Below, piece by piece: positions 5,253 through 23,488 of a stretch of 64,000 nt of DNA. A program made the translations under genes and the position numbers. Origin of the DNA: an uncultured Methanosarcinales archaeon (GTDB taxonomy: Archaea; Nanobdellota; Nanobdellia; Woesearchaeales; CAZKBD01). The stretch is taken from NCBI GenBank assembly GCA_964550945.1, contig CAZKBD010000001.1, positions 289 through 64,288 of the forward strand, in the 5' to 3' direction. Under the pieces are notes generated by a model, which saw nothing but the letters and a program-made list of their open reading frames with translations, had not been told where the DNA came from and made no database searches. Every line of letters begins with the position of its first letter. Within the stretch, counting starts at the first letter, position 1.

Positions 5253-5352
5253 ATTTTTTTTATTACTATTATAAAATAGCAAAAAGTTTATATATGAGTA
5301 CCTTATTATCCTGTGTAATATTCATATAAAACTACAATTTCGGGGTGGAAAA

Positions 5353-6435: not shown

Positions 6436-6510
6436 GCCTTTTTCTTTTGTTTTTACTTTTAAGTAACAAAATTAGAAAGATTTAAAAACAGATTAATATT
6501 CCTCTATCCT

Positions 6511-7266: not shown

Positions 7267-7314
7267 ATTCAGCAATCTTTATATATTGTTTCTTATTCAA
7301 TTGTATAATCAAAT

Positions 7315-9279
7315 ATGAAAAAAAAGTTTTACATAACCACAGCTATCGCATATCCAAATTCAGCGCCTCATCTAGGGCATGCTTTGGAGATAATCCAGGC
7401 AGATGTAGCTGCACGATTTCATAGGCTGCTTGGCAAGGATGTTTTCTTCCAGACAGGAACAGACGAGCATGGAGTAAAAAACTGGAAGACTGCGCAAAAG
7501 CAGGGAAAAGATATTCTGGAATTTCTCGATGCCAATGTTGCTGCTTTCAAGGATTTATATAAAAGGTTAAGCGCATCTTATGATTTTTTCATAAGAACAA
7601 CCGACAAGAATATACACCAGCCAGGCGTAATAAAGCTCTGGAAAGAGTTGGCAAAAAATGGGGATATATACAAAAAAGATTACAAAGGCATGTATTGCTC
7701 TGGTTGTGAATCATTTAAAACAGAAAAAGACCTTGAGGATGGGAAATGCTCAAATCATCCGACTCTCGAAATAGAGCTTGTTCATGAAGAAAACTATTTC
7801 TTTAAGCTTTCAAAGTACAAGGATGAGATTACAAAAAAGATTGAATCAGATGAATACAAGATAGTCCCAAATGCGCGAAAAAATGAGATATTGTCTTTCT
7901 TAAAAAACGTCAAAGACATCAGTTTTTCAAGGCCAAAAGCATCATTGCCTTGGGGGATCCCTGTTCCAGGAGATGATAACCAGATAATGTATGTTTGGTG
8001 CGATGCCTTATCCAACTATATAACAGGAGCAGGGTATGGAAGAGATGAAAAAACCTTCAAAGAGATATGGCCGGCAGACGTCCACATCATTGGGAAAGAC
8101 ATACTAAGGTTTCATGCGGCTTTCTGGCCTGCAATGCTGATTTCTGCCAGGATTAAGCTGCCTAAGCTGTTGTTTGTTCACGGGTTTATCCTGTCAAAAG
8201 GGGCAAAGATGGGCAAATCAACAGGCAATGTAATTGGGCCTTTTGAGCAGATTGAAAGGTATGGTGTTGACCAATTCCGCTTCTATATAGCCGGATCAAT
8301 GCCAATTGATGGCGATGGAGAATATTCCGAAGAGCTGTTACTTGAAAAAGTAAACGCTGAATTGGTTGGAAACCTTTCAAATTTCTGCTATAGGGTTTTA
8401 TCTTTCACAAACAAGAATTTTAACTCTGAAATCAAAGAGATTGATAATAGTCTTGTGATTGAAAACATAACCAAAAAGTTCGATCAGATAAAAAAAGCTT
8501 ATGAAGAATTTGACTTTAAAAAGGCTATTGATGAGGTAATGGCTGTTTCAGCTATTGGCAACAAATATTTCCAGGATAATGAGCCATGGAAATTGATAAA
8601 GCAAGATAAAGAAAAAGCACACAAGATAGTTGGGCTTTGTGTCAATCTTGTAAAGGATCTCGGCATTTTAATGGGCCCTGTGATGCCTGGTTTTTCAGAT
8701 AATCTATTCAATCAGTTGAAATTAAAGAACCTTAAGTGGAAAGATCTGGATTTCAAGCTAAAGAATCATAAAATTGCAGATGCTAGGATATTGATAAACA
8801 AGATAACTGAAAAGATTAAGGAAGAGTTCCCTCTTGATTTAAGAATTGCAAAAATTTTATCAGTTGAGCAGCATCCAGGCGCTGATAGGTTATACATATT
8901 AAAAATAGACCTTGGAACAGAAAAAAGGCAGCTGGTTGCTGGTGTAAGGAAAAATTATACTGAAAAAGAGCTCCAGGGAAAGAATATAATTGTTGTATGC
9001 AATCTAAAGCCGGCTAAATTAAGGGGCATTATAAGCGAGGGTATGTTGCTGGCTGCTGATAACGGAAAAGAAATCGGCTTGTTGACTGTAGAAGGTTTGC
9101 CAGGCGACTCGCTTAATTTTGGCAGTATGGAGAACGCTAAAAAACGGATTGATATTGATAATTTTTCAAAAATTAAATTAGTAGCCAAAGAAGGCAAGGT
9201 TTATTATAAAGAATCAATATTAAAATCAAAAAAAGGCGATGTTTCAGTTGAAAGAGTCAATGAAGGAACAATTAGTTAG
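7315..9279 (+). CDS. metG: Methionyl-tRNA synthetase with C-terminal tRNA-binding (EMAP/Trbp111-like) domain
   Basis: HLGH (HIGH) motif and KMGKS (KMSKS) motif. The C-terminal stretch ILSVEQHPGADRLYILKIDLG is typical of an OB-fold tRNA-binding domain. Confidence 0.9.
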   Translation: MKKKFYITTAIAYPNSAPHLGHALEIIQADVAARFHRLLGKDVFFQTGTDEHGVKNWKTAQKQGKDILEFLDANVAAFKDLYKRLSASYDFFIRTTDKNIHQPGVIKLWKELAKNGDIYKKDYKGMYCSGCESFKTEKDLEDGKCSNHPTLEIELVHEENYFFKLSKYKDEITKKIESDEYKIVPNARKNEILSFLKNVKDISFSRPKASLPWGIPVPGDDNQIMYVWCDALSNYITGAGYGRDEKTFKEIWPADVHIIGKDILRFHAAFWPAMLISARIKLPKLLFVHGFILSKGAKMGKSTGNVIGPFEQIERYGVDQFRFYIAGSMPIDGDGEYSEELLLEKVNAELVGNLSNFCYRVLSFTNKNFNSEIKEIDNSLVIENITKKFDQIKKAYEEFDFKKAIDEVMAVSAIGNKYFQDNEPWKLIKQDKEKAHKIVGLCVNLVKDLGILMGPVMPGFSDNLFNQLKLKNLKWKDLDFKLKNHKIADARILINKITEKIKEEFPLDLRIAKILSVEQHPGADRLYILKIDLGTEKRQLVAGVRKNYTEKELQGKNIIVVCNLKPAKLRGIISEGMLLAADNGKEIGLLTVEGLPGDSLNFGSMENAKKRIDIDNFSKIKLVAKEGKVYYKESILKSKKGDVSVERVNEGTIS

Positions 9280-10027
9280 GATATTCAAGATAGATAAGAC
9301 GCTCTTGTTCGTTATAATTGCTGATATCTTGTTTTATTTGTGCTTAGCTGGCAGCTTATACTCATTAAACCTCATTATGATTGATAATTTCAAATCATTA
9401 GAAAGCACTTATTCTACACTTGAAAAGCTCAGCTCTATCTATAATGGAGATGCAATCTCATCTGCTGAGTCATTCACAGCTGAGCTGGAATCGACGCAAA
9501 ATATACTCCGTAAAGTGCTTATCAACTCAGCGATAATAAGCATTATCTTTTATTTTTTAATAATTACGTTGATATCCTTGATAAAAGGCTTTATTTGGTC
9601 TAGAATATCCAGCCAAAGATTCAGCTTCAGATATTTTTTGAAGAGTTGGCTGCTTAATTTATTATGGGTTAGTTTCTGGTGCATAATCCTTGCATCAACT
9701 ATAATCTTATTCAAGGCGAATATAAACTACTATATTGTTGCTTTGGAGCTGTTATTATTTATCTACAGCAGTTCTGTTATAAGAGCTTTATTCAACGAGA
9801 AGGAAAGCCTTTTTAGCCAGATTAAGAAAGGGATTAAATCTTGTTTTAAGTTTAGGAAATTGCCCCTGTTGTGTTTATTCATCAGCTTTATTATATTTGC
9901 TCTAATCTATTATCTGATGTTGTTTGTATCGCAGGGAATAACCTTTGTGGTTATAGTCCTTATCATGCTTGCACTATACTCTGCTTTGGCTAGAAGATAT
10001 ATCTTAGATAGCTTGCGCTTGGTTTAA
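9260..10027 (+). CDS. Polytopic membrane protein of unknown function
   Basis: Multiple hydrophobic helices. The start is ambiguous (ATG at 9239 or 9260, both overlapping the metG 3' end). Weak similarity in layout to 43388..44191. Confidence 0.45.
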   Translation: MKEQLVRIFKIDKTLLFVIIADILFYLCLAGSLYSLNLIMIDNFKSLESTYSTLEKLSSIYNGDAISSAESFTAELESTQNILRKVLINSAIISIIFYFLIITLISLIKGFIWSRISSQRFSFRYFLKSWLLNLLWVSFWCIILASTIILFKANINYYIVALELLLFIYSSSVIRALFNEKESLFSQIKKGIKSCFKFRKLPLLCLFISFIIFALIYYLMLFVSQGITFVVIVLIMLALYSALARRYILDSLRLV

Positions 10028-11212
10028 TGTCTGGCAAGAATCTCTTAGATAGCTATTAACTAATTTATCGCAAACTGAATAGTCTTTTTGGTCTAAAACA
10101 AAATTCATATAGCAGGAATCCCTTATCGATTCTTTGGCAATGCCTTCGCAAGCTGAACTGTCAATTTTTGCTTTTGCAATAGATGCATAACATCTGTCTT
10201 TTGACAATTCTTCTGCAATCTTGTCGCAGAAGATGGCATTTTTTGCCACTTCAGCAATGTTCCTGAAGCAGCTATCTCTGTACATTGCAATATCAACCAT
10301 ATCGCAATAATTTGCTGCTGATCTTACATCTGTTTCAGAGATTTTCTTGATTTTATCCAATGTCTCAGTCAAAGTAAGGCCTTCAAACATATCTGTTTGC
10401 TGCTCAATGCAGTCCTTAGAGCATTTTGCAGGAGTCTCTGATTCTTCGCAGATGTTATTGCCGCAGCACGGCATAATTTGTTTATGCTTGCATTCAGAAT
10501 TTTCATCACAATAGTCTTCTGTGCAAAGGTCATAATCATTGCAGCTTGGCGGGCATTTCTTTTCTGCCTCACATGGTTTGCATGCCCCTCCACAATCAAC
10601 GCCTTCTTCATTTTGGTTTTGTATCTTGTCAGTGCAGCTGGATTTTACTGATTCTTCATATATGCTGATTGTTAAAGCTGCTTTTGCTTCCTTGCCATCA
10701 TAAACAGAAACAGCATTTAGTACAGCATTGCCAGGGGCAGCATCGTCTGGAATCTTTATCTTTATTTGCTTGCTTGCTTTGGTCTCAACAGCAGCTGTTT
10801 CTTGATACGATGTTATTGTAGATGATGTATCAATAGTTACCAGGCTATAGCTGGTTGTTGCATCAACTCTTTTTCCGAAATTCGTTAGCTCTCTAATGAA
10901 AACAATCTCTTGGCCAGGCATTACGGTTGTCTGCACTGGCTCTAACTTAATGTCAAGAATAGCTTCCTGGCCAGGTTTAAGGTATATCACCAAAGAAGCA
11001 ACTACCAATGCAAGCCCTATCACAACAAATAACAATGTTAATACCGTTGTTTTTGAAAGATGATGCACTACATGTGTTGTTGAATAAGCCTTGCTAATCG
11101 AACTATTGATATCATTCTGGCTGTATCCAGAATTGATAAGATGGGCCCTTATGCTATCAATGTCATAGCCCTGCTCAAGGTACTGTTTTATGAATTCGAC
11201 TAGCTTTTGCAC
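10004..11212 (-). CDS. Single-pass membrane protein: small cytoplasmic N-domain, TM, extracellular beta-domain, Cys-rich module and (K/R)D(S/Y)C(F/Y/I) repeats
   Basis: Paralog of 19775..20893: MQKLVEFIKQYLEQGYDIDSIRAHLINSGY versus MPQKLTVYIKQQLDRGFDINSIREHLIQYGY. TM helix at residues ~57-78. GVDCGGACKPCE Cys cluster. Repeats YRDSCF / KDRCY / RDSCY / RDSCQ. The start codon is GTG at 11212. Confidence 0.65.
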   Translation of the reverse strand: MQKLVEFIKQYLEQGYDIDSIRAHLINSGYSQNDINSSISKAYSTTHVVHHLSKTTVLTLLFVVIGLALVVASLVIYLKPGQEAILDIKLEPVQTTVMPGQEIVFIRELTNFGKRVDATTSYSLVTIDTSSTITSYQETAAVETKASKQIKIKIPDDAAPGNAVLNAVSVYDGKEAKAALTISIYEESVKSSCTDKIQNQNEEGVDCGGACKPCEAEKKCPPSCNDYDLCTEDYCDENSECKHKQIMPCCGNNICEESETPAKCSKDCIEQQTDMFEGLTLTETLDKIKKISETDVRSAANYCDMVDIAMYRDSCFRNIAEVAKNAIFCDKIAEELSKDRCYASIAKAKIDSSACEGIAKESIRDSCYMNFVLDQKDYSVCDKLVNSYLRDSCQTLNQAQAI

Positions 11213-11340
11213 TTTAGTTCCCTAACTTCTTCTATTGTGAATTTTATTACCTTTCCTTTTTTTAGATTATAGATCCTTTTATCATCTACATCAAATATTA
11301 TTCCGATAGAATTTCCAATTCTTTTTACTATCTTTTCCAT
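11200..11340 (-). CDS. 46-aa micro-ORF, possible AbrB/MazE-like small regulator
   Basis: MEKIVKRIGNSIGIIFDVDDKRIYNLKKGKVIKFTIEEVRELKCKS. Overlaps the start of the downstream membrane-protein gene. Not in the ORF track because it is under 60 aa. Weak call. Confidence 0.25.
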   Translation of the reverse strand: MEKIVKRIGNSIGIIFDVDDKRIYNLKKGKVIKFTIEEVRELKCKS

Positions 11341-11447
11341 TATACAATGTAATACAATGTATAACCTGTTTAAATATTTTTCTATTTCTAATATGCTGAT
11401 AGAACTAAGCGATCAAGAAGATAGCTAACTAGGATTCTGCTACTGGA

Positions 11448-11924
11448 TTAAGATGTGCATGCCTGTTCTATGGCTGGTGTCCCAGTGCAACCTGTAGGTG
11501 TTGAGGAAGCTACTTCTCTTGTTTGTTTGCCGCCCACACACTCTCCCCACGCTGAATAAGTGTAAGTACATGTAGGGGTTGTTTGTTGCTGAGCTGGTGT
11601 ACAAGCCTGCTCTGTGGCAGGTATTCCGGTGCAACCTGTTGGAACAGCAGAAGCTACTGTGCGAATTTGTTTACTATTAGTGCATTCTCCCCACGCTGAA
11701 TAAGCATATGTGCATACAGCTGGTTGTGGAGCCTGCTGAGCTGTGGTCTGCTGGTAAGTTGGCGGTATGTTCGACACTTCAGTGGACTTCTTATCATCAT
11801 TTTTCTCCTCTTTGTTGCAGCATTCGCCGCAGCAATCACAACCACTACATCCAACCAAGAATACGGAAGCTAACAAAGAGGCAATAATCCCTGCAATAAT
11901 CAAAATCTTTGCTATTTTGTCCAT
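11448..11924 (-). CDS. Cys-cluster lipoprotein (lipobox LVGC, CSGCDCCGECC) with two tandem W..W..C repeats
   Basis: N-terminus MDKIAKILIIAGIIASLLASVFLVGCSGCDCCGECCNKEE. Two ~40-aa repeats CTYxYSAWGECxxxKQxRxVASxxPTGCTGxPAxEQACT. Confidence 0.6.
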   Translation of the reverse strand: MDKIAKILIIAGIIASLLASVFLVGCSGCDCCGECCNKEEKNDDKKSTEVSNIPPTYQQTTAQQAPQPAVCTYAYSAWGECTNSKQIRTVASAVPTGCTGIPATEQACTPAQQQTTPTCTYTYSAWGECVGGKQTREVASSTPTGCTGTPAIEQACTS

Positions 11925-11976
11925 CGTTAATGCTTCTTTTAGGGGTATATGAATTTTATCGCTAAACTAATGCATA

Positions 11977-12186
11977 TCATAAGGCATTAATTGGTTGAGA
12001 GCTTATTATTAAATGGTCTATAACTTCAGGCGCTTGAGTGTTACTTGAAGAGCTAGTATTGTTTTTGTCTTCCTTGTTGCAGCATTCTCCGCAGCAATCA
12101 CATCCGCTGCATCCAGTCAAGAAAACCATTATCAACAAAGAAGTGATAATTCCTGCAATAATCAAAATCTTTGCTATTTTACCCAT
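11977..12186 (-). CDS. Cys-cluster lipoprotein paralog (LTGC lipobox, CSGCDCCGECC)
   Basis: MGKIAKILIIAGIITSLLIMVFLTGCSGCDCCGECCNKEDKNN, then a Ser-rich tail. Near-identical N-terminus to 11448..11924. Confidence 0.55.
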   Translation of the reverse strand: MGKIAKILIIAGIITSLLIMVFLTGCSGCDCCGECCNKEDKNNTSSSSNTQAPEVIDHLIISSQPINAL

Positions 12187-12363
12187 ATAACCACCAGTTT
12201 AATTTGGAGTATATAAATCTTATTTCTATTATGGGAGTAGTGATAAATCAAATAGCTTGATTACCAACTTGAAGAAGTGCCACTATTGCTATCTTCCCAT
12301 CCATTATGCACTAAAAAGCCTTCTGCAAATGGGCCATCTATTTGGTCAAAAACCGACCATACA

Positions 12364-12606
12364 CTAAGCGCCAGCATCAGGAACAGCCTCCTCATTTATC
12401 CCCACTTTATAACAACTTCTCTCTGCGAGATTTGATGTACTAGATGCACTACTGTCTTTGTTGGTATCATCTTTATTAGGATTTTTGTCATCAGATTTTT
12501 CAGGATCGCAGCATTCGCCGCAGCAATCACAAGCAACTAAGAATATCAAAAGCAAAATTGATACTGTAAAACCCAATCTAATTAGGGCCCTTCCTAAATC
12601 TCCCAT
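12364..12606 (-). CDS. Cys-cluster lipoprotein paralog (LVAC lipobox, CDCCGECC)
   Basis: MGDLGRALIRLGFTVSILLLIFLVACDCCGECCDPEKSDDKN... Third member of the tandem family. Confidence 0.5.
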   Translation of the reverse strand: MGDLGRALIRLGFTVSILLLIFLVACDCCGECCDPEKSDDKNPNKDDTNKDSSASSTSNLAERSCYKVGINEEAVPDAGA

Positions 12607-12733
12607 ACCGACATTGATTCAACTGGAGATATATAAATCTTGTTATGCTCTAGAATATATCTCATAAAATATATCGCCTTAAAGATAGAAAAGCTTAATA
12701 AGAGGCTTATATGGATATTTTTGGGGGATTTGA

Positions 12734-14263
12734 ATGAAAGTACTATTTGTCAGACCACCAAGATATAAATGGCCTTTTCATTCGGAGAAAAGCAGCTTTT
12801 GGCAGCCATTAGGCTTTGCTTCAATGGCAGCTGTCTTAAGGGATGGAGTAGATGGACTTGACATAAAGATTATTGATTGCCCTGTACAACAATTTGGGTG
12901 GAAAACAACAGAAGAAATAATTTCAAGGGAAAATCCAGATATTCTTTGCGTAGGAGAAGAAACAGTCTCGGCTCATGAAGCAATCAAACTGGTGCATATC
13001 ACCAAATCTTTGTTTCCTTCTTGCATTGTTATTGCAGGAGGTAATCATTTTGCATATATGATCAAAGATAGTCTATTAAGTCAGCCTATCGACTTCATTG
13101 TAAGATTCGAAGGAGAACAAACTCTTTTGGAGCTCATAAGGGCTATCAAGAAAAACCCAAAACCTAACATTAAAAAACTAAAGAGAATAAAAGGAATAGC
13201 ATTTTTGCATGAAAATAAGATAATTGAAACTGAGTTAAGGCCTTTGCTCGATATGGAAAAGCTGCCATTGCCTGCTTATGACCTATTGCCTATGGAATTA
13301 TATGGTAAAGGAGCTAGGTCGCATCCAGACTTAGTTGCAGTCGAACATTCCCGCGGTTGCAGCTGTTCATGCAATTTTTGTATTTTGTGGAAGCAATTTG
13401 GCCAGGTTGACCTTAAAACCGGAGTTGTAAAACCATGCTACAGGACAAAGTCTCCAAAAAAAACCATTGATGAGGTTTTGTATCTGGCTAAAAAATACAA
13501 AAGAAAAACCTTCTGCTGGGTAGATCCAACATGGAATGTCAACTCCAAATGGAACTCAGAATTCTCAAAATTAATGATTGATTCTGGCCTTGATGTTGAC
13601 CATTCAGTATGGATGAGGGCAGACTGCCTTGTTAGGGACCATCAAAAAGGAATCTTTGCAAGCCAAATAAATGCAGGAATCAAACAAGTGATGATTGGCA
13701 TAGAAAGGACAGACAATGATGACCTTGCTTATTTTAACAAGAAGGGCTATTCATATGAAACAACAAAGAAAGCCTTCGAGATTGTAAAAGGCTATCCAGA
13801 GGTTTTGTCAGTTGCGAGTTATATATATGGTATACCTAATGAGACAAGGCAATCAATGAAGCGATTCTACGATTTATTGAGGGATATCCCTTTTGATATA
13901 GGGCTTGCGATCCCTTTGACCCCTAATCCAGGAACAAAATTCTTCGATGACCTTGAAAAGAGGAATCTTATCGAGATAAGGGAGTTTAAGTATTATAATT
14001 TCATTAATCCAGTCGCGAGAAGCAAATACCTTAGCAGAAATGCGTTAATGTTGAATATGGTTTGGAATGAAAACAGGGTAAGGGCAAGCAAAGAGCACCT
14101 GGTAAAATTCCAGTCAAGAGCAAAGAGAAGAAAAACAGCAACAATCAACCTAGCAAAAGGAAAGGCTCAAGTAATGTTCAGGTATGCCAAAGGAATATTG
14201 CAGGAAACCTTGCTTGGCAGATATTACAATTACAACATCAAGCCAGAGTGGTATGAGAAATGA
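12734..14263 (+). CDS. B12-binding-domain radical SAM enzyme
   Basis: N-terminal cobalamin-binding-like domain. Radical SAM Cys triad within EHSRGCSCSCNFCILW (C-x3-C-x2-C). GGGGG-type RBS upstream of the ATG. Confidence 0.8.
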   Translation: MKVLFVRPPRYKWPFHSEKSSFWQPLGFASMAAVLRDGVDGLDIKIIDCPVQQFGWKTTEEIISRENPDILCVGEETVSAHEAIKLVHITKSLFPSCIVIAGGNHFAYMIKDSLLSQPIDFIVRFEGEQTLLELIRAIKKNPKPNIKKLKRIKGIAFLHENKIIETELRPLLDMEKLPLPAYDLLPMELYGKGARSHPDLVAVEHSRGCSCSCNFCILWKQFGQVDLKTGVVKPCYRTKSPKKTIDEVLYLAKKYKRKTFCWVDPTWNVNSKWNSEFSKLMIDSGLDVDHSVWMRADCLVRDHQKGIFASQINAGIKQVMIGIERTDNDDLAYFNKKGYSYETTKKAFEIVKGYPEVLSVASYIYGIPNETRQSMKRFYDLLRDIPFDIGLAIPLTPNPGTKFFDDLEKRNLIEIREFKYYNFINPVARSKYLSRNALMLNMVWNENRVRASKEHLVKFQSRAKRRKTATINLAKGKAQVMFRYAKGILQETLLGRYYNYNIKPEWYEK

Positions 14264-14352
14264 CAAAAACAAAACACACTAGGGTTTTACCCACCAGAGA
14301 TATCTGAGAATAATCAATAAACCTCTTCGTGGGGCATTCTATCTTGCTCTTT

Positions 14353-15192
14353 TTATAATGTTTTAAAATCCTTTTTAGATTTATTGATTAAGTGATGGGA
14401 ATGTATCAAGGCGATAGAAGAAAATATTGATATCACCAACCCCGCCCACTGCCCAACACTCATCCCAAGATGCTTTGTAACTGGCACGCTCCTGCCCACA
14501 ACCAGGAAATCAATCCAGAAATTGGCAAAGCAATATAACAGCAAAAACCAGAGGATAACCTCTCCATCAAACCTTTTTCCGAATTTGCTTTTTTCTGTTT
14601 TCTCTTTCCCAAAAAACACCTTCAAGATTATAAAAATCAACAAAGCGCTTAAAGCCATATAACCTGAAGCAGGATGCCTGCAAATGCCATCAGGCCACAT
14701 GAAGCACCAAGGAAGGTCTGTTGGAGCGCCCTTAATATCGCCCCTTAATGTACAGCCAAACAAGCGATAGATAAAAAATGCCAAAGCAGCTGGAGCAGCT
14801 ATTATATCCGCAATCCTTGCGAACTCAATTTGCCAGACCTTCTTTTCTTTTTTGAACCTCACTAAAGCATAAACAACAAGCCCTATTGCCCCGCCAATAA
14901 TGCAGCCTATGCTGTATAACCCTCCTTTTGACAAATTAAAAATATCAATTATTGTCTTTAAGCCTTCCCAGTGAGCAATATAAAACCATATCCTTCCGCC
15001 TGCTAAAGCTGAAAAAAGCACTATAGAGAAGAAGACAAAATATTCCTTCACATCCATCTTCAGCTTTTGCTTTTCCAGGCCCTTGATAACCAAAAAGATA
15101 AAAATAGCAAAAGCCAAAGTCATTGCAACAGGCTCTGTCCCTAGTCTAAGCATCCCTATCTGATAATATTTTACTGGCGTGTAAATTATCAT
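14353..15192 (-). CDS. lgt: Prolipoprotein diacylglyceryl transferase
   Basis: Polytopic membrane protein with the Lgt signature region LAGGRIWFYIAHWEG (compare E. coli FLVGGRIGYVLFY) and matching overall size and topology. Confidence 0.75.
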   Translation of the reverse strand: MIIYTPVKYYQIGMLRLGTEPVAMTLAFAIFIFLVIKGLEKQKLKMDVKEYFVFFSIVLFSALAGGRIWFYIAHWEGLKTIIDIFNLSKGGLYSIGCIIGGAIGLVVYALVRFKKEKKVWQIEFARIADIIAAPAALAFFIYRLFGCTLRGDIKGAPTDLPWCFMWPDGICRHPASGYMALSALLIFIILKVFFGKEKTEKSKFGKRFDGEVILWFLLLYCFANFWIDFLVVGRSVPVTKHLGMSVGQWAGLVISIFSSIALIHSHHLINKSKKDFKTL

Positions 15193-15330
15193 ATTTTGTG
15201 TTTGAATGTCTTATCTTTATAAATGTTTTTTGATTTAGGCTCAGTAGAAATCCTAGCCGTATGTGCCACGTTTTCTGGAGAATGATTAGCATTTTCTAGA
15301 AGTTAGAAACCATTAGGTTTTCCAACTGCC

Positions 15331-15417
15331 TTGTTTGCGTAGCAAACAATGGCAAAGGCCAGACGTCTCAGCTTTGCAAAGCAAAGGTGAGGGGTTGGAA
15401 ATGTATGCATTTCCAAG
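15331..15417. promoter_or_regulatory. Cluster of four perfect palindromes in the leader of the 954-aa surface-protein gene
   Basis: ttgtttgc-gta-gcaaacaa (15331-15349), agacgtct (15361-15368), gctttgcaaagc (15371-15382), ttggaaatg-tatg-catttccaa (15396-15417). Confidence 0.4.
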
Positions 15418-15509
15418 CGAGCTTACCAAGTTCCTATACGAAGTATGGGGTTTTGGTAAGCAAAGTAGGGTATTTCGCAACATCCTCAGTTTTACCGAAA
15501 GATTTATTT

Positions 15510-18371
15510 ATGGCGGTTGCTAGAAACCAATTTGTGCTAAAAAAGAGGTGCAAGTTTATCAGCAAAAAATCTCAGATCACCATATTTATAATACTGGGGA
15601 TAATGCTAATTATCTCCATTGGCTTTGTGATAGTTATGAGGGGTCCTGAAGCAGAAATCCAGGAAAAAGAGATTATAAAGCCAACTCTTCCTAAAGTAGA
15701 AAAAGGCACATTCGAGATATACGTAAAGAATTGTATCCGTGATACAGCTATTCCTTTGATAATAGATTTTGCTAAGCATGGAGGCACTTTAGACTCATTA
15801 ACCCCGTTAAAGGATGCAAGAGTCTATTATAACGCTCCTTACAGATATCTATGCGCATACGATTTAGAGCATGGATGTGTCAATAAGATTATAACAAGAA
15901 ACGACATGGAGCAGGAGATTAATGAGCTGATAGAGCAGCCATTCCTTAAGTGCGTAAATCTTGACGCATTTACCGAGCAAAACTACAAGATCGAAACAGG
16001 CCTTTTAGCAATAAATACAACAATAAATGTGGATGATGTTGCTATTACACTAAACTATCCTATGAAAATATCCAGAGGAGAGCTTTTGTTTGAGTTAGAA
16101 ACATTCTCTGAGAAGATTGAAGTTCCTCTTGGCAGGCTTTATGATTTGGCTGTCCAGATTACAAATAGCGAAATAGTGAACAGGACATTTGACAAGGATG
16201 AATGGATGTACAAAAAAGGCGTAAATGTTATAATAGAAAAACATAAGCCCTATCCAGATATTATTTATAGATTAAATAAATACATAAAGGAGACAAATAC
16301 CAATCTGACATTCAATTTTGCAATACAAGGTTATGACACAGTTGCTTTAATTGGCTCAGAAGAGCCGATAAGCCTTTACAATTATTGCTATTTCCCAACA
16401 GAAAAAAATTGCTTTGCGAATTCTGACAAAAATAGATGCGAATCCAAAGGCGGAATCTCTGTAGAAACTCCCTTGGATTGCAGCAGTCCAACTGAATTTA
16501 CAGGCACAACCTTGTGTGATGGCCAACAATGCAACAACTGCAATGATAAGCGAAATGGTGAAACCTGGTGCTTGTATGACAGCATTTCTGGAGCAGGGCT
16601 TGATAGGGCTGGCTCAAGGCATTTCAAGCAAAGCTGCATAAACGGAAAAACATACACAGAAGAATGCAGGGATTTTAGGGAAGAATTATGCACAACAAAA
16701 GACAACAAAGCGGTTTGCAGGGAAAATAGGTGGCAGGATTGCGCCTTGCAAAATAATCTAATTGGCTGCCAGAATGAGGAATTAAGAGATTGCATCTGGT
16801 ATCCGCTGCTTTTTGACACCAAAAATTCTCTGGTTCCAAGATGCGGCCCTATTGTGCCTCCTGGATTTAGATTCTGGGCAGGAGAAGGGATGAATGTATG
16901 CGCCTTTGGCAATGATGTTGGTGAATGCCCAGACACAAAAACTTATTGCCCTGACAATTGGGATGACAGCGCTGCACAATACTGCTATTCAATAGGAGAC
17001 TGCGGAAATTATCTAAACTATCTAGGCCAGCTAACTGAAACCGGATTTTATAATTCTGATCTGATTGCTTATGATCTCCATGTACGTCCAATATTGTATT
17101 ATAAAAATCTCAAAGCAGATGACAGCAAGATTGATCTAGCTACAGGCAAGAATAATAGGGTAATTGCAAATTACGACAACCATCCTTACCCAGGCTCTTC
17201 CTACATAGCCCATGCAACTACTGATGAAATAACTGGATTTGTGAATGATTACATCGATAAAGTTTTAGATTGGGAAATTTGCGATATATTTGAATGTGAT
17301 TTTGGACTTATCCCTAAAAGGCCGCTATACAAACATTTTAAGAAATATGTTATTGGCATCAGCTTTTGCCTGCCTTGGGGCGCTCCTCCTGATGGTGATT
17401 GCGAGCAATGCAATGAAGATCCTGTTAAGCCATGCGGCGAATACAGATGTAGAAGCATCTCTAAAATATGCAATTATTATGAAGATATAAGTACAGGAAT
17501 AGGCAAGTGCGAAACACCAAGGCCAAGCTCGACAACATTAACTGTTGAGGTTGTAGAAGCGCCAGAAGGCTATAATTTCGTAAAGGATTATTTTGCCTGG
17601 AAATCCAAATTACTTGTCGGCAAAAAATTAATGCCTAAAGTTGGGCAGGATAGCGTAATGACATTAAAAGTTAATACAAACCAGGATGCAACATGCTGGA
17701 TAGCTCCTCTGCCTGAATATCTAGACACATTTATTGGAGGAGGGCAATACAGTAAAGAGCATAACCTCACAATGAATATACCTGGTGCAATTGAATTGTA
17801 TCTCAAAAAGATACAAAGCTTGATGAGTATAAGCAGCTTCTCTCAAGGCTATGCGCTTCCAGACAGCATGACTGCCAGTGATTATTTAAGATTTGAAGAT
17901 ATGCTCAAAGACACCTTCCCTGATCTTTCACCTGGAGAATTAAGGGCATTGCAAGCCTCATTAGAAAAAATAATAACAGATGCTGATTCAAGGAAATTTT
18001 ATATGTTCATCAAATGCATGGACAAATTCGGAAATATTAATAACAATAATTATATAACATTTGATATAAGCAGCGACGACAAGGCTCCAACAGTAAAGAT
18101 AGTTTCTCCTGGAAGGGATGAATCTGTTCCAGCAGGCACCATTGATTTCACTTATAAGCCAAAGGATAATATGGCATTAAAGTTATCATGCAGTTTATGG
18201 TACAACAGCACAACTGAAGAATGGCATAAGAGATCCGCTCTCCTAAGCTGGAACAATATAGAAGTCAAAATGCCTGTTGAGCTGGCTGCAGGCACATATA
18301 CCTGGAGCATTTCCTGCACAGACGGATTTAATGAAGCATTTGGAGAAAAAAGGACATTGATCGTTACTTGA
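15510..18371 (+). CDS. Large TM-anchored surface protein (954 aa): N-domain paralogous to 21371 and 35417 proteins, plus Cys-rich core and Ig-like C-terminus
   Basis: Start placed at MAVARNQFVLKKRCKFISKKSQITIFIILG, which matches the K-rich-then-QITVFIILG N-termini of the paralogs. The ORF track starts earlier at 15387. A Cys-dense segment spans residues ~360-560. Confidence 0.65.
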   Translation: MAVARNQFVLKKRCKFISKKSQITIFIILGIMLIISIGFVIVMRGPEAEIQEKEIIKPTLPKVEKGTFEIYVKNCIRDTAIPLIIDFAKHGGTLDSLTPLKDARVYYNAPYRYLCAYDLEHGCVNKIITRNDMEQEINELIEQPFLKCVNLDAFTEQNYKIETGLLAINTTINVDDVAITLNYPMKISRGELLFELETFSEKIEVPLGRLYDLAVQITNSEIVNRTFDKDEWMYKKGVNVIIEKHKPYPDIIYRLNKYIKETNTNLTFNFAIQGYDTVALIGSEEPISLYNYCYFPTEKNCFANSDKNRCESKGGISVETPLDCSSPTEFTGTTLCDGQQCNNCNDKRNGETWCLYDSISGAGLDRAGSRHFKQSCINGKTYTEECRDFREELCTTKDNKAVCRENRWQDCALQNNLIGCQNEELRDCIWYPLLFDTKNSLVPRCGPIVPPGFRFWAGEGMNVCAFGNDVGECPDTKTYCPDNWDDSAAQYCYSIGDCGNYLNYLGQLTETGFYNSDLIAYDLHVRPILYYKNLKADDSKIDLATGKNNRVIANYDNHPYPGSSYIAHATTDEITGFVNDYIDKVLDWEICDIFECDFGLIPKRPLYKHFKKYVIGISFCLPWGAPPDGDCEQCNEDPVKPCGEYRCRSISKICNYYEDISTGIGKCETPRPSSTTLTVEVVEAPEGYNFVKDYFAWKSKLLVGKKLMPKVGQDSVMTLKVNTNQDATCWIAPLPEYLDTFIGGGQYSKEHNLTMNIPGAIELYLKKIQSLMSISSFSQGYALPDSMTASDYLRFEDMLKDTFPDLSPGELRALQASLEKIITDADSRKFYMFIKCMDKFGNINNNNYITFDISSDDKAPTVKIVSPGRDESVPAGTIDFTYKPKDNMALKLSCSLWYNSTTEEWHKRSALLSWNNIEVKMPVELAAGTYTWSISCTDGFNEAFGEKRTLIVT

Positions 18372-19035
18372 TTGACTTCAGAAACAATTTTTCCAGGTCT
18401 GATTTTGGAATTTTTCTTTCAACAATCATCTTCCCATGGTCAATTATACCAATATCTGTGCAAACCTCTTTTATTACAGCCAGATCATGAGAGCTTATCA
18501 CTACTGTCTTGTTTTCAAGAGAGTTCATAAGGTCTTTTACTAGTTTGATGGCTTTGGGGTCTAATCCATTAGTAGGCTCATCCAGAATAATAAGCTCTGG
18601 ATCCCCTGTTAATGTTTTTGCTATTGACAGAAGCTTGGTCATGCCATGTGAAAGATTCTTCACCTTTGTATTTGACAACCCTACTTTAGATAATAAATCA
18701 GACGCTTCTTTCTTTGCATTCTCCACATTTTTCAGCTTTGCGAAAAAGGTTAGATTTTCTAATGCAGTCAATTCTGGATTCAAGCTCGAATTCTGCAAAA
18801 ATGCCCCTAATCTCTGCTGGATTTCATTAAAATTGTTTATGTCTACACCAAATAGTTTTATAGAGCCGGAATTAGGGTATCTTACCCTGCAGAACATAGA
18901 CAAAGTTGTTGTTTTGCCTGCTCCATTCCTTCCTATAAACCCGTATACAGAATTCTTTTTCACATTCATATCTAGCTTGTTCACCGCAATATTTTTCCCA
19001 TACTTTTTTGTCAGATCTTTTGTCTCAATTATCAT
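18364..19035 (-). CDS. ABC transporter ATP-binding protein
   Basis: Walker A GRNGAGKTT, signature LSHGM, Walker B LIILDEPTNGLD. Confidence 0.85.
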   Translation of the reverse strand: MIIETKDLTKKYGKNIAVNKLDMNVKKNSVYGFIGRNGAGKTTTLSMFCRVRYPNSGSIKLFGVDINNFNEIQQRLGAFLQNSSLNPELTALENLTFFAKLKNVENAKKEASDLLSKVGLSNTKVKNLSHGMTKLLSIAKTLTGDPELIILDEPTNGLDPKAIKLVKDLMNSLENKTVVISSHDLAVIKEVCTDIGIIDHGKMIVERKIPKSDLEKLFLKSIK

Positions 19036-19778
19036 AGTTCACGCCTTTTAAATGCCATTAAAGCTATTGCGATAAATATTGCTGCAGAGACTATGAGTAT
19101 TGCCAAAGGTGAAAACACCCTGCCAAAACTGTCAGTCAGCAGATAGAATCCATCAACATAATGTTTGTATGGAGACAGCCACCCGATTGTTGTGCTGATA
19201 AAAAACAAAGGCAGCGCATTTGCAATCAAGCCAAGGTAAAGGCTTCTTTGTGGATTTGATGTCAAGCTCGATGTCATCACAGAAAGCGCCACAAAATACA
19301 AAGAATAAATGCTAAGGAAAAGCCATAATAAGAATCCATCAAATAGCACATATTCTCCTGTTTTTTGGAATATGTAAAACACAGCAATAATATAGATCAA
19401 GAAGTTGATTGTTATATTAATCAAAAAGATGCCTAAAAACTTTCCAAGCACTATCGAGTTTCTTTTGGCTGCAACAACCAGATTTCTTATTGTCTCTTTG
19501 TGTATCTCTTTAGAGATGCAATCATAAGACAGCAATAAAGAGAATACTGGCAGTAGAAATATGGACATAAAATAAAACAGCACTAAAGTGTAAGGCACGC
19601 TTTTGCCATAGAAGCCAAATACCTGTATAAGGATCAGCCTGAAGTTCATTGCAAATGAAACACTTTGGCTGATGCCGAATACCAATAGTGCTACATAAAC
19701 AAATAATAAAAAAAGCACTTTTTTGTTTTTCAAAGACTGCTTGATTTCGTCTAGGGCTATTGTTAATGTTTGTCTCAT
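19032..19778 (-). CDS. ABC-2 family permease
   Basis: Six-helix membrane protein directly upstream of the ATPase. The ATG at 19778 overlaps the stop of the upstream gene (ATGA). The ORF track extends to a TTG at 19796. Confidence 0.6.
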   Translation of the reverse strand: MRQTLTIALDEIKQSLKNKKVLFLLFVYVALLVFGISQSVSFAMNFRLILIQVFGFYGKSVPYTLVLFYFMSIFLLPVFSLLLSYDCISKEIHKETIRNLVVAAKRNSIVLGKFLGIFLINITINFLIYIIAVFYIFQKTGEYVLFDGFLLWLFLSIYSLYFVALSVMTSSLTSNPQRSLYLGLIANALPLFFISTTIGWLSPYKHYVDGFYLLTDSFGRVFSPLAILIVSAAIFIAIALMAFKRREL

Positions 19779-20893
19779 TTGGATAATAAGGCGCAAGACT
19801 CCTTTAAATTCTTATTGGTTATAAGTTCGCAGTCTGAATAGTCATTTGTATTTATCGCAACATTCATTATGCACGAATCTTTTCTTACAATATCCGATAT
19901 CTGCATGCACAACCTGTTATTAGCTGAGCTAAGCGCTATCTCATTAAAGCAGTAATCTTTTCCAGCATTTTCTTCAATTTCAGCGCATAATTTTGCGGCT
20001 TTTTGCGGGTCTTTTTCAACTACAGCATTAACCTCCTTCATTCTCTCCTGAAGGTTCATAGATTCATTTTTCCCACAATCTATACATTCCTCTTGCTCGC
20101 AACCAATATCCTCACAGCATGGCTCGATTGCATCATGCTTGCATTCAAAATTCGTTGTCTCATTGCAATAATCAAAAGTGCAGCTGTTGTTGTCATCACA
20201 CTCTGGGCAGGGGTTTTCTTGTTTACATGCAGTGCATGGGCCTCCACAATCAATATCTTCTTCTCCATGGTTTTTTATGCCATCAAGACATGTTTCAGTA
20301 TTTTTGGTGATATCTGTTGTAAAGACAGAAAATTCAAATGATGCTGAGGCTGTTTTTTGCTGGTAATTGGCAGTAGTCTCTAATTTATAAGTTCCAGCCT
20401 TTGCTTCGCTAGGCATTCTTATTTCTGATAGCTTGGAAGCTCGTGTAATAACTCCAATTTCCTCTTCTAATGATGATACTACAGTCCCATTAGTATCTAT
20501 AATTTGGTGTACTAAGTGCACATCAAACTTTTGGTCGTGTCCAATATTAAAAAGATTTATCTTGAATTCAACAGGCTGTCCTGGCTCTACTGAAGTGGTT
20601 ACTGCATTAATTTCCAAGTCAAGAAGGTACTCCTTTTCTCCCTTAGGAGACATATAGATAAAGATAGATGCTATAACTATCGAGATTCCCATAAAGAAAA
20701 AGATCAATACCAAAGCAGAAGATTTTGAGAGGTGTATTGTGTGCCTTGCTTCCTTATGCCTGTATAGGTTTTCTATGGTATCATCCACTTGTTTAAATGA
20801 ATAGCCATATTGTATCAAATGTTCTCTTATAGAATTGATATCAAAGCCCCTGTCTAATTGCTGTTTGATGTATACTGTTAGCTTTTGGGGCAT
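19775..20893 (-). CDS. Single-pass Cys-rich membrane protein, paralog of 10004..11212; first gene of the ABC-2 operon
   Basis: Same architecture: cytoplasmic N-domain, TM, beta-domain, CGGPCTAC Cys module, KDYCF / KDSCI / KESCA repeats. Its stop overlaps the permease start. Confidence 0.65.
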   Translation of the reverse strand: MPQKLTVYIKQQLDRGFDINSIREHLIQYGYSFKQVDDTIENLYRHKEARHTIHLSKSSALVLIFFFMGISIVIASIFIYMSPKGEKEYLLDLEINAVTTSVEPGQPVEFKINLFNIGHDQKFDVHLVHQIIDTNGTVVSSLEEEIGVITRASKLSEIRMPSEAKAGTYKLETTANYQQKTASASFEFSVFTTDITKNTETCLDGIKNHGEEDIDCGGPCTACKQENPCPECDDNNSCTFDYCNETTNFECKHDAIEPCCEDIGCEQEECIDCGKNESMNLQERMKEVNAVVEKDPQKAAKLCAEIEENAGKDYCFNEIALSSANNRLCMQISDIVRKDSCIMNVAINTNDYSDCELITNKNLKESCALLSK

Positions 20894-21212
20894 ATAGTTT
20901 TTATTTTAATCTCAATTATTTAAAGGTTTTGTTTATTTGTATTACAAAAAATAGGCTATATTAAGTATAAATGAGGCATTAATCTAGCAAAATATTATTA
21001 TAATAGCTTAAAAAATACTTAAAAGATACTTAGTTTATACTAATTTTTGTATAAAAAATCTAATTTAATTTTTCTGAGAATTTTTTTAAAAGATTTTTAT
21101 ACCCAAATGATTCATCATTTATCCATTTTATAGCATAAATAATGGCTAAAATTCCATTTTACAGATTTTAACCAAAAGATTTAAATATGAGGAGTTAGAA
21201 AGGATGTAATGA

Positions 21213-21374
21213 ATGAGTGTCCAGATAAGGATAACCGTAAGCAAAGAAATTGATGAGCTTCTTTCTAAAGTAGCTAAAAAGCTTGGAAAAAAGAAGAGTA
21301 TGCTAGCCCGCGAACTGATGGAGCAAAAGATGTATGACCTGGAATTGATACAAAAAGGGCTAAAGGAAATATGA
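21213..21374 (+). CDS. Ribbon-helix-helix (CopG/Arc-like) small DNA-binding protein
   Basis: 53 aa: MSVQIRITVSKEIDELLSKVAKKLGKKKSMLARELMEQ... (beta-strand then two helices). The stop overlaps the ATG of the next gene (ATGA). Not in the ORF track because it is under 60 aa. Confidence 0.5.
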   Translation: MSVQIRITVSKEIDELLSKVAKKLGKKKSMLARELMEQKMYDLELIQKGLKEI

Positions 21375-23488
21375 AAAAAGGCAAAAAAGGCCAGATTACT
21401 GTATTTATAATATTGGGCCTTCTTTTGCTGGCTGCAGTTGTTGTTTATGTCAGCATAAATCAAACAGAAAAGGAGAAAGGATCAGCTGCTATTCCAAAAG
21501 TTGAAAAAGTTCCAATAGAATTCCAGCCAATCCAGAATTATGTCGAGAACTGCCTTAAGCTAACTGCTGAAGAAGGACTGAAGTTAGCGATGGACCACGG
21601 CGGCTATATAGATCCAATAACTTCCGGAATTAATTCAAATCCGACAGAGCCAACAAGCTCAAATGGTGTTTCGCTTCCTGGAGATTTCATAATTCCTTAT
21701 TGGTATTATCTAAAAAGCGATAATAGATGCATCAAAAATTGTGAATTCAGCTCAGAAAGGCCTCCATTAAGAAGAAATGAAGGCCCTAAATCAATAGAAG
21801 CCCAGCTTGATAGTTACATCAAAGTAAAAATCAAAGATTGTACAAGAAATTTTGAAGCATTTAAAGAAGACGCAAATGTTGTCGAGAATGGTGTAATAAG
21901 CATTACATCTAGTGTGTTGGATAGTGATGTATTATTTGTGATGGTATATCCATTGGCTGTCACAAAAGAAGGCGTTACAAAAGAGATGAATAATTTCTAT
22001 GTCAGGATTCCAGTCAGATTAAATGATATCTATGAGCTAGCCACAATAATGACTAATCTTGAGGAGAAATACAGGTTCTTAGAGAGAGATGCTGTCCAGC
22101 TTATTGTTGGATTTTCCGGGCTTGATGAAGACAAGCTGCCTCCAATGAGCGAATCCAGAGTCCAGTTTGGCAATGAAATCACATGGACAAAAAGCAAGGT
22201 TAAAAAAGATGTTGAATCAATGCTCTCGAGCTATATACAGCTTCTAAGGGCGCAAAATACCCTCAATTATCAGGAGTATAATTTTGGCGACCCTTACAAA
22301 GATGCATTATACAATCTGCATATGATAATCCCATTTGACCAGGATTATAATCATCTTGCTGCCAGTTTCAATTATCTCCCTGAAACTCCTATTTATTTTG
22401 ATTTGAATTGTGATGGCGAAACCTGCAAGCCTTTATCTGTTTCTCAAAACTTCATTGCCCTGTTCGGCCTCCAAAGATATGAGTTTGCCTATGATATAAG
22501 CTTCCCAGTGATGGTTGAGATATTTGACCCAGCTGCATTTGATGGTAAAGGTTATTATTTCAGGTATTATCTGGAAGCTAACATAGGGAATAATGAGGTT
22601 ATGCTGCATAATTTCACGCAATTAGAAAGCATAGATATGGCAGCTGGCTCTATGATGTGCGATGCTGACAAGAGAAATTCAGGAGAGATAGCCATAAATG
22701 TCAAAAACAAAAAAGGCCAGAATATTGATGGTGCTGATGTCGCATTTAGCTGCGCTGATGAAAGCTGCATTATAGGAGCAACTTCTAATGGCTTGCTTAA
22801 GGAAAAGCTGCCTGTTTGTATTGGAGGTTTTGTAACTGTCATGAAAGAAGGGTATGTTTCAACATCAAACCTATTAAGCACTGTGTTGGACAAGAAAGAC
22901 AGTGTTGACATTGTTTTAGATCCATTAATGGAAAAGCCATTCAAAGTCAAAAAGAAATTGATTGTTAGGGCAGGCGATAATTGGATATTCACCAATAACG
23001 AAGTTGATATTGGCAGGGATGAGCAAGCTATTGTAAGAATCACAAGAGTAGGCTCTTTAGGCGATGAAGAGCATAATTTTGCTGCTGAATATAATGGAAA
23101 TCAAAGCATCTATGGCGGAGAAGAAAGTTTCTTGACAATTGCGCCTGGAACCTATGATATTAGCATACAGGTCATCAACAATCAGAGATTTGTAATACCT
23201 CCAGAAAAAAGAGAAACCGGCAGCGGATTTTTTGGCATAGGCGATGAAGAATACACTATCCCTAAAGTTGAATTTAATGATTCATGGCCTTCTGGCGGAC
23301 TAAATCTAAGATATGAGTTCAAAGCAGAAGAACTTGACAAGAGCAAGAACATTGTATTTTTCGCTGCAGCTCCTGCATTAGACCTTATACCAGAAGAAGA
23401 CAGGCATGTTGAAGATTTAGAGCAGTTGTCCAAAACTGATGAATATTCAGCTGCATATGCAGAGCATTTAAAGCCAAGGCTGGAGTAA
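21371..23488 (+). CDS. TM-anchored surface protein (705 aa), module A gene 1
   Basis: MKKGKKGQITVFIILGLLLLAAVVV anchor. N-terminal ~250 aa paralogous to the 15510 and 35417 proteins. Confidence 0.65.
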   Translation: MKKGKKGQITVFIILGLLLLAAVVVYVSINQTEKEKGSAAIPKVEKVPIEFQPIQNYVENCLKLTAEEGLKLAMDHGGYIDPITSGINSNPTEPTSSNGVSLPGDFIIPYWYYLKSDNRCIKNCEFSSERPPLRRNEGPKSIEAQLDSYIKVKIKDCTRNFEAFKEDANVVENGVISITSSVLDSDVLFVMVYPLAVTKEGVTKEMNNFYVRIPVRLNDIYELATIMTNLEEKYRFLERDAVQLIVGFSGLDEDKLPPMSESRVQFGNEITWTKSKVKKDVESMLSSYIQLLRAQNTLNYQEYNFGDPYKDALYNLHMIIPFDQDYNHLAASFNYLPETPIYFDLNCDGETCKPLSVSQNFIALFGLQRYEFAYDISFPVMVEIFDPAAFDGKGYYFRYYLEANIGNNEVMLHNFTQLESIDMAAGSMMCDADKRNSGEIAINVKNKKGQNIDGADVAFSCADESCIIGATSNGLLKEKLPVCIGGFVTVMKEGYVSTSNLLSTVLDKKDSVDIVLDPLMEKPFKVKKKLIVRAGDNWIFTNNEVDIGRDEQAIVRITRVGSLGDEEHNFAAEYNGNQSIYGGEESFLTIAPGTYDISIQVINNQRFVIPPEKRETGSGFFGIGDEEYTIPKVEFNDSWPSGGLNLRYEFKAEELDKSKNIVFFAAAPALDLIPEEDRHVEDLEQLSKTDEYSAAYAEHLKPRLE

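Follow-up and report, generated by a model that had tools for sequence, protein, structure and literature searches.

What role do two paralogous cysteine-rich membrane proteins, one of them encoded at the head of an ATP-binding cassette (ABC) transporter operon, play in the archaeon that carries them? The two genes, which we call famA and famB, lie on the minus strand of a 64-kb stretch of contig CAZKBD010000001.1 from an uncultured Woesearchaeales archaeon (the whole stretch analysed, with a G+C content of ~37% and its nearest relatives on contigs labelled Candidatus Woesearchaeota or Nanoarchaeota, is referred to here as the window). An earlier note, made from the letters alone, had placed the open reading frames (ORFs) at 10004–11212 and 19775–20893, and both are present there, famA encoding 402 amino acids from a GTG start and famB 372 amino acids from an ATG start. 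The note had likened the proteins to a sensor or accessory subunit of an export or antimicrobial-peptide-type ABC system, with famA as an orphan second copy. Our analysis points to a different reading, our best one although still tentative, in which the two belong to a family of type II membrane-anchored adaptors or receptors of a Woesearchaeal surface apparatus, one ancient duplicate having taken on the role of extracytoplasmic auxiliary to an ABC-2 exporter.

FamA and famB align over their full length with 34% identity and 52% positives (BLASTP, E 2e-74), a likeness far above chance, and the two are true paralogs, as had been proposed. In a neighbour-joining tree famA is sister to the branch that joins famB to the family member of contig L003, and the gene order of L003 is the same as that of the window up to the end of the L003 contig; the duplication is therefore old and common to at least one other lineage. 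The shared N-domain (IKQ.L..G[YF]DI[DN]SIR.HLI..GYS), transmembrane (TM) helix and beta-rich ectodomain described by the earlier note are all found, in the sequence and in a model of famB. Specifically, famA begins with a predicted cytoplasmic three-helix N-domain (11078–11212, residues 1–45; N-domain hidden Markov model (HMM) E 3e-20), followed by a TM helix (10979–11050, residues ~55–78, hydrophobic stretch TTVLTLLFVVIGLALVVASLVIYL), a CARDB/MG-like beta-sandwich (10649–10966, residues ~83–188; Ig HMM E 7e-37, with a sub-threshold Ig_VWA7 match), a Cys-knot region (10409–10636, residues 193–268) made of one C.D..N..E..DCGG.C..C module and one Dicty_CTDC-like module (PF00526, 25 bits against a cut-off of 27), and a C-terminal helical repeat (10007–10306) of four units of 26 residues (C-x11-C-x13; repeat HMM E 1e-51). 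FamB has the same order on the same strand: N-domain (20753–20893, residues 1–47; HMM E 8e-24), TM helix (20651–20725), beta-sandwich (20324–20626), Cys-knot region (20075–20290, residues 202–273; PF00526, 23 bits) and a repeat of three 26-residue units (19778–19987), one unit being deleted compared with most of the family. An AlphaFold2 model of famB, for which nine homologs served as input, has a mean predicted local distance difference test (pLDDT) score of 74.5. It contains three short helices within residues 2–45 (2–14, 19–28 and 33–45), a TM helix at 57–81, a seven-strand beta-sandwich at 90–190 (pLDDT ~85–93), a poorly modelled Cys-rich stretch at 194–279 and six helices at 281–371 (pLDDT ~81–91), and thus depicts both the beta-sandwich and the helical repeat of the ectodomain.

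The cysteine motifs of the ectodomain bear out what the earlier note had listed. The CGG(A/P)C..C module reads DCGGACKPC in famA and DCGGPCTAC in famB, and the (K/R)D.C(Y/F/I)..(I/V)A units are genuine and set in an exact 26-residue repeat whose unit is C-x2-[IVL]-x5-[KR]-D-x-C-[YF]-x2-[IV]-A. The repeat cysteines stand at 303/315/329/341/355/367, and also at 381/393 in famA, so that their spacing alternates between 12 and 14 in the four units of famA and the three of famB. No Pfam family, Sel1 and TPR included, matches the C-terminal 130 residues of famA that carry this repeat, even at E≤5. Across 88 family members the mean number of cysteines is 0.09 in the first 85 residues and 18.8 in the rest, and the mean net charge is +1.26 over the 12 residues that precede the TM helix and -0.07 beyond it; this cysteine distribution and charge bias together indicate an N-in, C-out (type II single-pass) topology. 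The number of cysteines past residue 85 is even in 97% of the members, which is consistent with a disulfide-bonded ectodomain. The best-conserved columns are the repeat cysteines and aspartates, together with a few Gly, Leu and Tyr positions of the N-domain and sandwich. We note that 29 of the 88 members, both window copies included, have an H-x-x-H-x-S motif next to the membrane, just cytoplasmic of the TM helix (famB residues ~48–56), and that 44 have H-x-x-H. Outside the membrane, sequence and model give each protein a beta-sandwich of the CARDB/MG type, between one and three disulfide-knot modules and, at the far end, an alpha-solenoid built from three or four helical hairpins of 26 residues.

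Each of the ectodomain modules can be compared with known ones. The sandwich resembles in fold the CARDB/MG2 beta-sandwich of archaeal and bacterial surface proteins (e.g. the CARDB domain of P. furiosus PF1109, PDB 3idu), although curated cut-offs are not reached (MG2, 18.6 bits versus 32.8; DUF11, 17.1 versus 24.6), and the likeness concerns one domain of five and is silent on function. The C.D..CT.D.C module of the window proteins resembles the Dictyostelium CTDC repeat below the PF00526 cut-off and has no NCBIfam match; PF00526 is matched by 38 of the 88 members (best E 7e-9). The Dictyostelium CTDC and Myxococcus-type cysteine-rich repeats form long arrays, whereas the window modules are one to three spacers. 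With the HMM built from the family's own Cys module, 80–95 tandem copies are detected in giant proteins of deltaproteobacteria, and further copies in many surface proteins of DPANN, candidate phyla radiation (CPR) and Bacteroidota genomes. Sel1-like repeats of Helicobacter cysteine-rich proteins are disulfide-bridged helical hairpins with a unit of ~36 residues. The family repeat shares with them the tandem helix-turn-helix units with one conserved Cys pair each, but its unit is 26 residues long with C-x11-C, and the comparison is one of analogy only. Proteins of ~280–330 residues on Altiarchaeota contigs L024, L027, L028 and L047 consist mainly of the same 26-residue Cys-paired repeat (repeat HMM E 1e-22 to 1e-28) and have neither N-domain nor sandwich.

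How widespread is this architecture? A word-indexed homolog search with famB returned eight relatives only, whereas a profile search run exhaustively over 1.8 billion cluster representatives (50% identity) was far richer and returned 757 proteins at E≤1e-30. The complete order of N-domain, TM helix, sandwich, Cys modules and repeat is present in ~110 of the best 150 representatives, at lengths of 330–460 amino acids, and a tandem pair of N-domains in ~20 family representatives; the other strong matches are giant proteins that match through the Cys module only. The family is restricted to Woesearchaeota/Nanoarchaeota-type genomes (DPANN). Its members reach no Pfam or NCBIfam threshold, with the exception of a precomputed PF00526 annotation for some homologs, a literature search returned nothing on the family, and the viral contigs searched contained no relatives. 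PADLOC defence models gave no match for famA, famB or the permease encoded after famB, and only generic ABC-fold matches for the ATPase; we rejected a defence-system reading.

The feature that had suggested a transporter role is the operon that begins with famB. It continues on the minus strand with an ABC-2 permease gene (19032–19778; PF12679, E 3e-15) and the gene for a DrrA/NodI-like ABC ATPase of 223 amino acids (18364–19035; PF00005, E 1e-29). The ATGA overlaps that the earlier note had reported at both junctions can be read directly ('tcc aaa TGA' / 'aaATGAgaca' between famB and permease, 'cta TGA' / 'ctATGAtaatt' between permease and ATPase). The permease start had been put at a TTG at 19796; we moved it to the ATG at 19778, because that ATG sits inside the overlap with the famB stop, which makes the permease 248 amino acids long.

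Whether this linkage holds for the family was assessed at 43 non-redundant loci, 7 of them obtained through look-ups of encoding contigs, 14 from reference genomes and the rest from metagenomes by a scan with a 7-sequence alignment; neighbouring genes were annotated by transitive phmmer searches seeded with the window proteins. The expectation that homologs would always be linked to ABC-2 transporters did not hold. A coupled operon of family gene and ABC-2 pair is found at 4 of the ~26 loci with enough downstream flank, namely famB and L003 (4-nucleotide overlap with the permease gene in each), L005 (1-nucleotide gap) and L015 (8-nucleotide overlap, with two tandem family genes preceding a very divergent permease). 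At three more loci the pair lies within ~1–5 kb: 1 kb upstream of the family gene as a separate transcription unit in L001, and 4.5 kb downstream on the opposite strand in L014 and L016. No ABC genes lie at the ~22 other loci whose downstream flank is 2.5 kb or longer, nor at any of the four loci, 20 kb each, that were sampled through the neighbouring gene big705 (described below). The ABC-linked members fall into two separate clades of the neighbour-joining tree, that of the window and a basal group of L014, L015 and L016, and the permeases of the four coupled operons are at most 26% identical. Coupling retained in two distant clades with permeases this divergent is probably functional where it is present. 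The coupling seen at famB is therefore recurrent and probably meaningful where it occurs, yet it is no property of the family, and because the ABC link is exceptional across the family, the family is probably a general component of a surface apparatus and not a transporter subunit. We note that wherever an ABC pair was seen, a big994 homolog lies next to it; the window's big994 (15387–18371, plus strand) and the ABC operon are convergent. The permease, used as query in a homolog search, returned the window's own protein and one fragment only.

More constant than the transporter is a different set of neighbours. The usual layout is a single family gene with its own TATA box, a divergent operon upstream that is led by a gene for a ribbon-helix-helix (RHH)-like protein, and, downstream and convergent, genes for a polytopic membrane protein (TM262) and MetRS. 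In the window the RHH-like protein of 53 amino acids (21213–21374, plus strand) is divergent from famB and heads an operon of surface proteins; its gene shares an ATGA overlap with the start of big705 (21371–23488, plus), a conserved Woesearchaeal surface protein, which is followed by big1169 (23490–26999, plus), a second large surface protein that is co-linear with big705 in most loci. TM262 (9239–10027, plus), for which there is no Pfam match, is convergent with famA and overlaps the 3' end of the MetRS gene. Across the 43 loci the RHH-big705-big1169 operon is divergent from or adjoins the family gene in the majority, and TM262/MetRS is convergent with it in at least 13 (TM262 itself being listed for at least 9); both sets are more constant neighbours than the ABC genes. 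The distance from the family gene to the 53-amino-acid ORF is 130–600 nucleotides in 16 loci and up to ~1.8 kb elsewhere, with small genes between.

The divergent intergenic region carries conserved signals on both sides. The 53-amino-acid protein has the strand-helix-helix pattern of an RHH repressor, with a weak DUF6290 match, and is 74–94% identical over ~35 loci, always 5' of big705 and overlapping or abutting its start, whereas at the same loci the family protein is only 25–40% identical and big705 30–45%. In most loci the stretch between a TATA box and the start codon of the 53-amino-acid ORF contains TAG(G/T)(C/A)TAAA as a direct repeat, in two or three copies spaced by roughly one turn of the helix; these repeats are a probable operator. 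On the family side, famB is preceded by a TATA box (TTTAAATA, 20917–20924, minus strand, with AAAACC before it) 23 nucleotides from its ATG, and an AACAA(C/T)xTTTAAATA element stands ~25–30 nucleotides before the family-gene ATG in 11 of 16 orthologous loci, famB included.

The divergent operon encodes giant surface proteins with pilin-type signals. Big705 has 155 detectable homologs, all of them hypothetical proteins and all from Woesearchaeota or Nanoarchaeota, and its N-terminus follows the pattern KKG|QITxFIIxG (KKG|QITVFIILG in the window protein), with Q8, F12 and G16 invariant. Archaeal class III (prepilin-like) signal peptides end in Gly with Gln at +1 (PMC3875500), and the big705 N-terminus fits such a signal as judged by its pattern. 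The signal is common to big994 (KKS|QITIFIILG) and a 633-amino-acid protein at 35417–37318 (KKA|QLTIFIIIG), and the three are paralogous through a homologous ~250-residue N-terminal alpha/beta domain without a structural match (for big994 against big705, BLASTP E 6e-18). Neither a prepilin peptidase nor a pilus ATPase was found among the window ORFs scanned. At the four loci sampled through big705, the operon continues with proteins of ~700–930, 250–290, 610–660 and 1800–2100 amino acids; the window has a similar series beyond a 4-kb insertion, the last being a 2017-amino-acid glucosaminidase-domain protein. A divergent gene with an N-domain is present at two of these four loci, a full family gene in L134 and, in L136, a gene (9572–9886) for a protein of 94 amino acids that is N-domain and TM helix only; the other two have neither.

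Viewed in this setting, famA is not the orphan it had been taken for. It occupies the usual family position beside TM262/MetRS, and a 46-amino-acid ORF (11200–11340, minus strand), with a TATA-like TATTTAAA ~30 nucleotides upstream and a product that begins MEKIVKRIGNSIGIIFDV, overlaps its start by 13 nucleotides. From its sequence pattern the 46-amino-acid protein may be AbrB/SpoVT-like; it has no Pfam match, and among the family loci examined it was seen in the window only. FamA thus holds the TM262/MetRS side and famB the RHH/big705 side, one flank of the ancestral site each. As the earlier note had seen, the two copies stand 8.5 kb apart. The block between them encodes three Cys-rich proteins with a lipobox as well as a B12-radical-SAM enzyme, Lgt, big994 and the ABC-2 pair, and a comparable block stands between RHH-big705 and the single family gene of L001. 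The region around the family gene seems to be a variable surface-gene island.

The N-domain extends beyond the family. Its HMM matches at 25 other loci with E-values of 1e-11 to 1e-25, and the domain aligns well with homologs from other contigs; the failure to align outside this contig that would have spoken against the earlier note did not occur. In L032 a protein of 2904 amino acids (2402–11113) carries three copies of the N-domain at its C-terminus, and in L065 a protein of 1219 amino acids (2–3658) carries two, in each case after a TM helix and a basic stop-transfer stretch; both giants are built of the same Cys modules as the family. A type I signal-peptide protein of 281 amino acids (L134, 2288–3130, and L104) has an N-domain behind its C-terminal TM helix. 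By these predicted topologies, the N-domain always ends cytoplasmic and membrane-proximal, whichever orientation the protein has, and this constant placement argues for a docking or oligomerisation role and not for a transporter-specific or DNA-binding one. Among known domains the N-domain weakly resembles the RecX three-helix repeat (PF21982), being a three-helix unit of ~45 residues with the pattern L..G(Y/F)....I...L...GY. RecX matches are weak and sub-threshold (14 of the 88 members at E≤1, best 7.8e-5; PDB RecX, E 0.48), the window N-domain alone matches neither RecX nor any other Pfam family, and the family domain differs in being membrane-proximal, charge-neutral and without a RecA context.

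Given these observations, we infer a binding role for the family and, for famB, a partnership with the transporter. We picture the distal helical repeat as the part that would contact a partner, be it one of the surface proteins encoded by the neighbouring operon or a ligand on the host surface; the beta-sandwich and Cys knots would form a rigid stalk; and the tail domain, in the cytoplasm, would either dock at the inner face of the membrane or oligomerise there. In a minority of lineages, famB included, a copy translationally coupled to an ABC-2 exporter would serve it as an extracytoplasmic auxiliary, as GldG does with GldAF. GldG, which acts in the gliding motility of Bacteroidota, is a transmembrane auxiliary of the ABC-2 transporter GldA/GldF, and the three are believed to make up a single transporter (PMC5682007). 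Like GldG, the family protein is membrane-anchored with a large extracytoplasmic part and, in famB, L003, L005 and L015, has its gene in the same operon as those of an ABC-2 permease (PF12679-type) and an ATPase; this is not so for famA or most of the 43 loci, where members lack an adjoining transporter. The two also differ in domain content, in the archaeal host, in the position of the family gene ahead of the permease and in their anchoring, GldG being anchored at each end and famA and famB by a single N-terminal TM helix. The GldG family PF09822 (ABC_transp_aux) is not matched by famA or famB at E≤0.1, nor is it among the 25 families most often matched by the 88 members at E≤1. NosD, the partner of NosFY, offers no closer parallel, as its right-handed beta-helix domain is absent from the famB model, which has the beta-sandwich and helical repeat, and no NosD profile matches.

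It could be argued that all members of the family serve an ABC-2 transporter of the export or antimicrobial-peptide type as its dedicated sensor or accessory subunit, with unlinked copies pairing with a distant transporter. The accessory part of this proposal stands in part for famB, given the overlapping operon and the four tightly coupled loci in two distant clades, and the nearby pairs of L001, L014 and L016 could be added to it. Moreover, at 7 of the 7 ABC-bearing loci seen a family gene is at most 5.2 kb away, a count that carries little weight because the loci were picked through the family. As a family-wide property we consider it improbable: the operon exists at a small fraction of the loci with sufficient flank and at none of those sampled through big705, the ABC-linked members are confined to sub-clades and not spread over the tree, the ABC pair follows big994 at least as closely as it follows the family gene, the N-domain is shared with giant adhesin-like proteins that have no relation to transporters, and models of the GldG, NosD and BceB types are unmatched. 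The sensor and antimicrobial-peptide elements found no support: the permease is a plain ABC-2 permease, the ATPase is below the lantibiotic-protection cut-off and the N-domain is without a signalling or DNA-binding signature. A BceAB-like system was rejected, the permease being a 248-residue PF12679/PF12698 ABC-2 protein and not of the BceB/FtsX type; no partner histidine kinase was found among the window ORFs scanned against Pfam, several smaller ORFs being outside that scan. Lantibiotic immunity (LanFEG) was likewise rejected, as the ATPase scores 170.3 bits on TIGR03740 against a cut-off of 309.75 and DrrA and NodI score similarly; all NCBIfam matches of the ATPase are below threshold, with GldA fourth-best. 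Less probable again is a membrane-tethered regulator, in which DNA binding, or sequestration of the RHH repressor, would fall to the N-domain (in a ToxR-like or anti-repressor-like manner) and the ectodomain would sense contact or a ligand and so control the RHH-big705 operon. The divergent arrangement in most loci, the putative operator repeats and the weak likeness of the N-domain to the helix-turn-helix-like RecX units would suit such a regulator. The N-domain, however, is charge-neutral on average (mean net charge -0.01, range -4 to +6 over the 88 members), lies only ~10 residues from the membrane, recurs in two or three copies on the tails of giant surface proteins and matches no DNA-binding family above threshold, its best PDB sequence match being a designed three-helix (HHH) miniprotein (8skx, E 4e-5). 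The cytoplasmic winged-helix domain (Trans_reg_C) of regulators of the ToxR/CadC type, specifically, is not matched.

The most serious contender, which we nevertheless regard as unlikely, is that the family proteins are generic membrane-anchored adhesins or structural proteins with no specific partner, and that their neighbours reflect inherited gene order in a region that is rich in surface proteins and prone to rearrangement. Its main argument is that MetRS, an unlikely functional relative, is conserved beside the family gene almost as often as big705, so that a large part of the synteny may be gene order passed down within one archaeal order. In addition, the gene content between big705 and MetRS varies among genomes, and all of the ectodomain modules are of types common in adhesins. 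It accounts poorly for the overlapping or near-abutting permease junctions kept in two clades, and for the 94-amino-acid protein of L136 that holds the divergent position next to big705, a hint that both this position and the tail domain are of consequence. The conservation of MetRS also weighs against our own reading of the family as an adaptor or receptor, and so do several further points. No member of the family is named or characterised, every homolog match being "hypothetical"; all loci but four were sampled through the family itself; the Cys-knot region of the famB model is of low confidence (pLDDT <50); the disulfide pairing of the repeat cysteines is deduced from their spacing alone, and the conserved D-x-C/C pairs may instead bind metal; and the pairing of famB with the permease is putative.

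A bolder extension of the adaptor reading, and one to which we attach little probability, is that the 45-residue three-helix domain is a new cytoplasmic docking module that ties the family, the type I Cys-rich proteins and the giant adhesins to one intracellular partner. The family protein would then be the dedicated membrane adaptor of a conserved host-attachment apparatus, specified by the RHH-controlled operon of giants with class III signals that ends in the 2017-amino-acid glucosaminidase protein, with the ABC-2 ATPase powering assembly or remodelling in some lineages. Woesearchaeota and their relatives are abundant, uncultivated and probably host-dependent archaea, and to our knowledge essentially nothing is known of how their surface makes contact with a host. 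Cys-rich surface proteins with a membrane anchor are a kind already known, and so are partner proteins that assist ABC-2 pumps. What is newly defined here is a widespread, unnamed membrane-protein family together with two unnamed modules, the juxtamembrane three-helix tail and the 26-residue Cys-paired helical repeat; its place beside a strikingly conserved RHH-led operon of giant surface proteins with pilin-type signals; and the ABC-2 link of the window as a lineage-specific recruitment. If the adaptor idea is true, the family offers a handle with which to pull down the attachment apparatus; if it is false, the locus is a clean case of an operon at a single locus misleading functional inference for a whole family.

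Several other features of the window deserve mention. The 2017-amino-acid protein (37315–43368, plus strand) at the end of the surface operon has a C-terminal glucosaminidase domain (PF01832, E 3e-10), a murein-hydrolase-type domain that in an archaeon is possibly aimed at the wall of a bacterial host. The insertion upstream of it consists of ~4 kb of small genes (27179–31075), including one for a YhcG/DUF1016 PDDEXK nuclease (28244–29203), and splits an operon that is co-linear in L134, L136 and L139; in L134 and L136, TM262-like ORFs lie inside the big-protein operon. Within the block between famA and famB, the three small proteins encoded at 11448–15192 have a lipobox-like L(V/T/A)(G/A)C followed by (D)CCGECC (CSGCDCCGECC in two of them), and they adjoin the B12-binding radical SAM enzyme (sub-threshold BchE/HpnJ-like) and the Lgt homolog (PF01790, E 6e-28). 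The set of Lgt, radical SAM enzyme and ABC-2 pair is seen again in L001, and L003 has Lgt and the ABC-2 pair up to its contig end. Finally, positions 44978–55850 encode a complete bacterial-type methylerythritol phosphate (MEP) isoprenoid pathway (Dxs, IspG, Dxr, an IspD-IspF fusion, IspE and IspH), with a polyprenyl synthase gene after the MEP genes and, on the opposite strand, a gene for an FAD-dependent oxidoreductase that is possibly geranylgeranyl-reductase-like.

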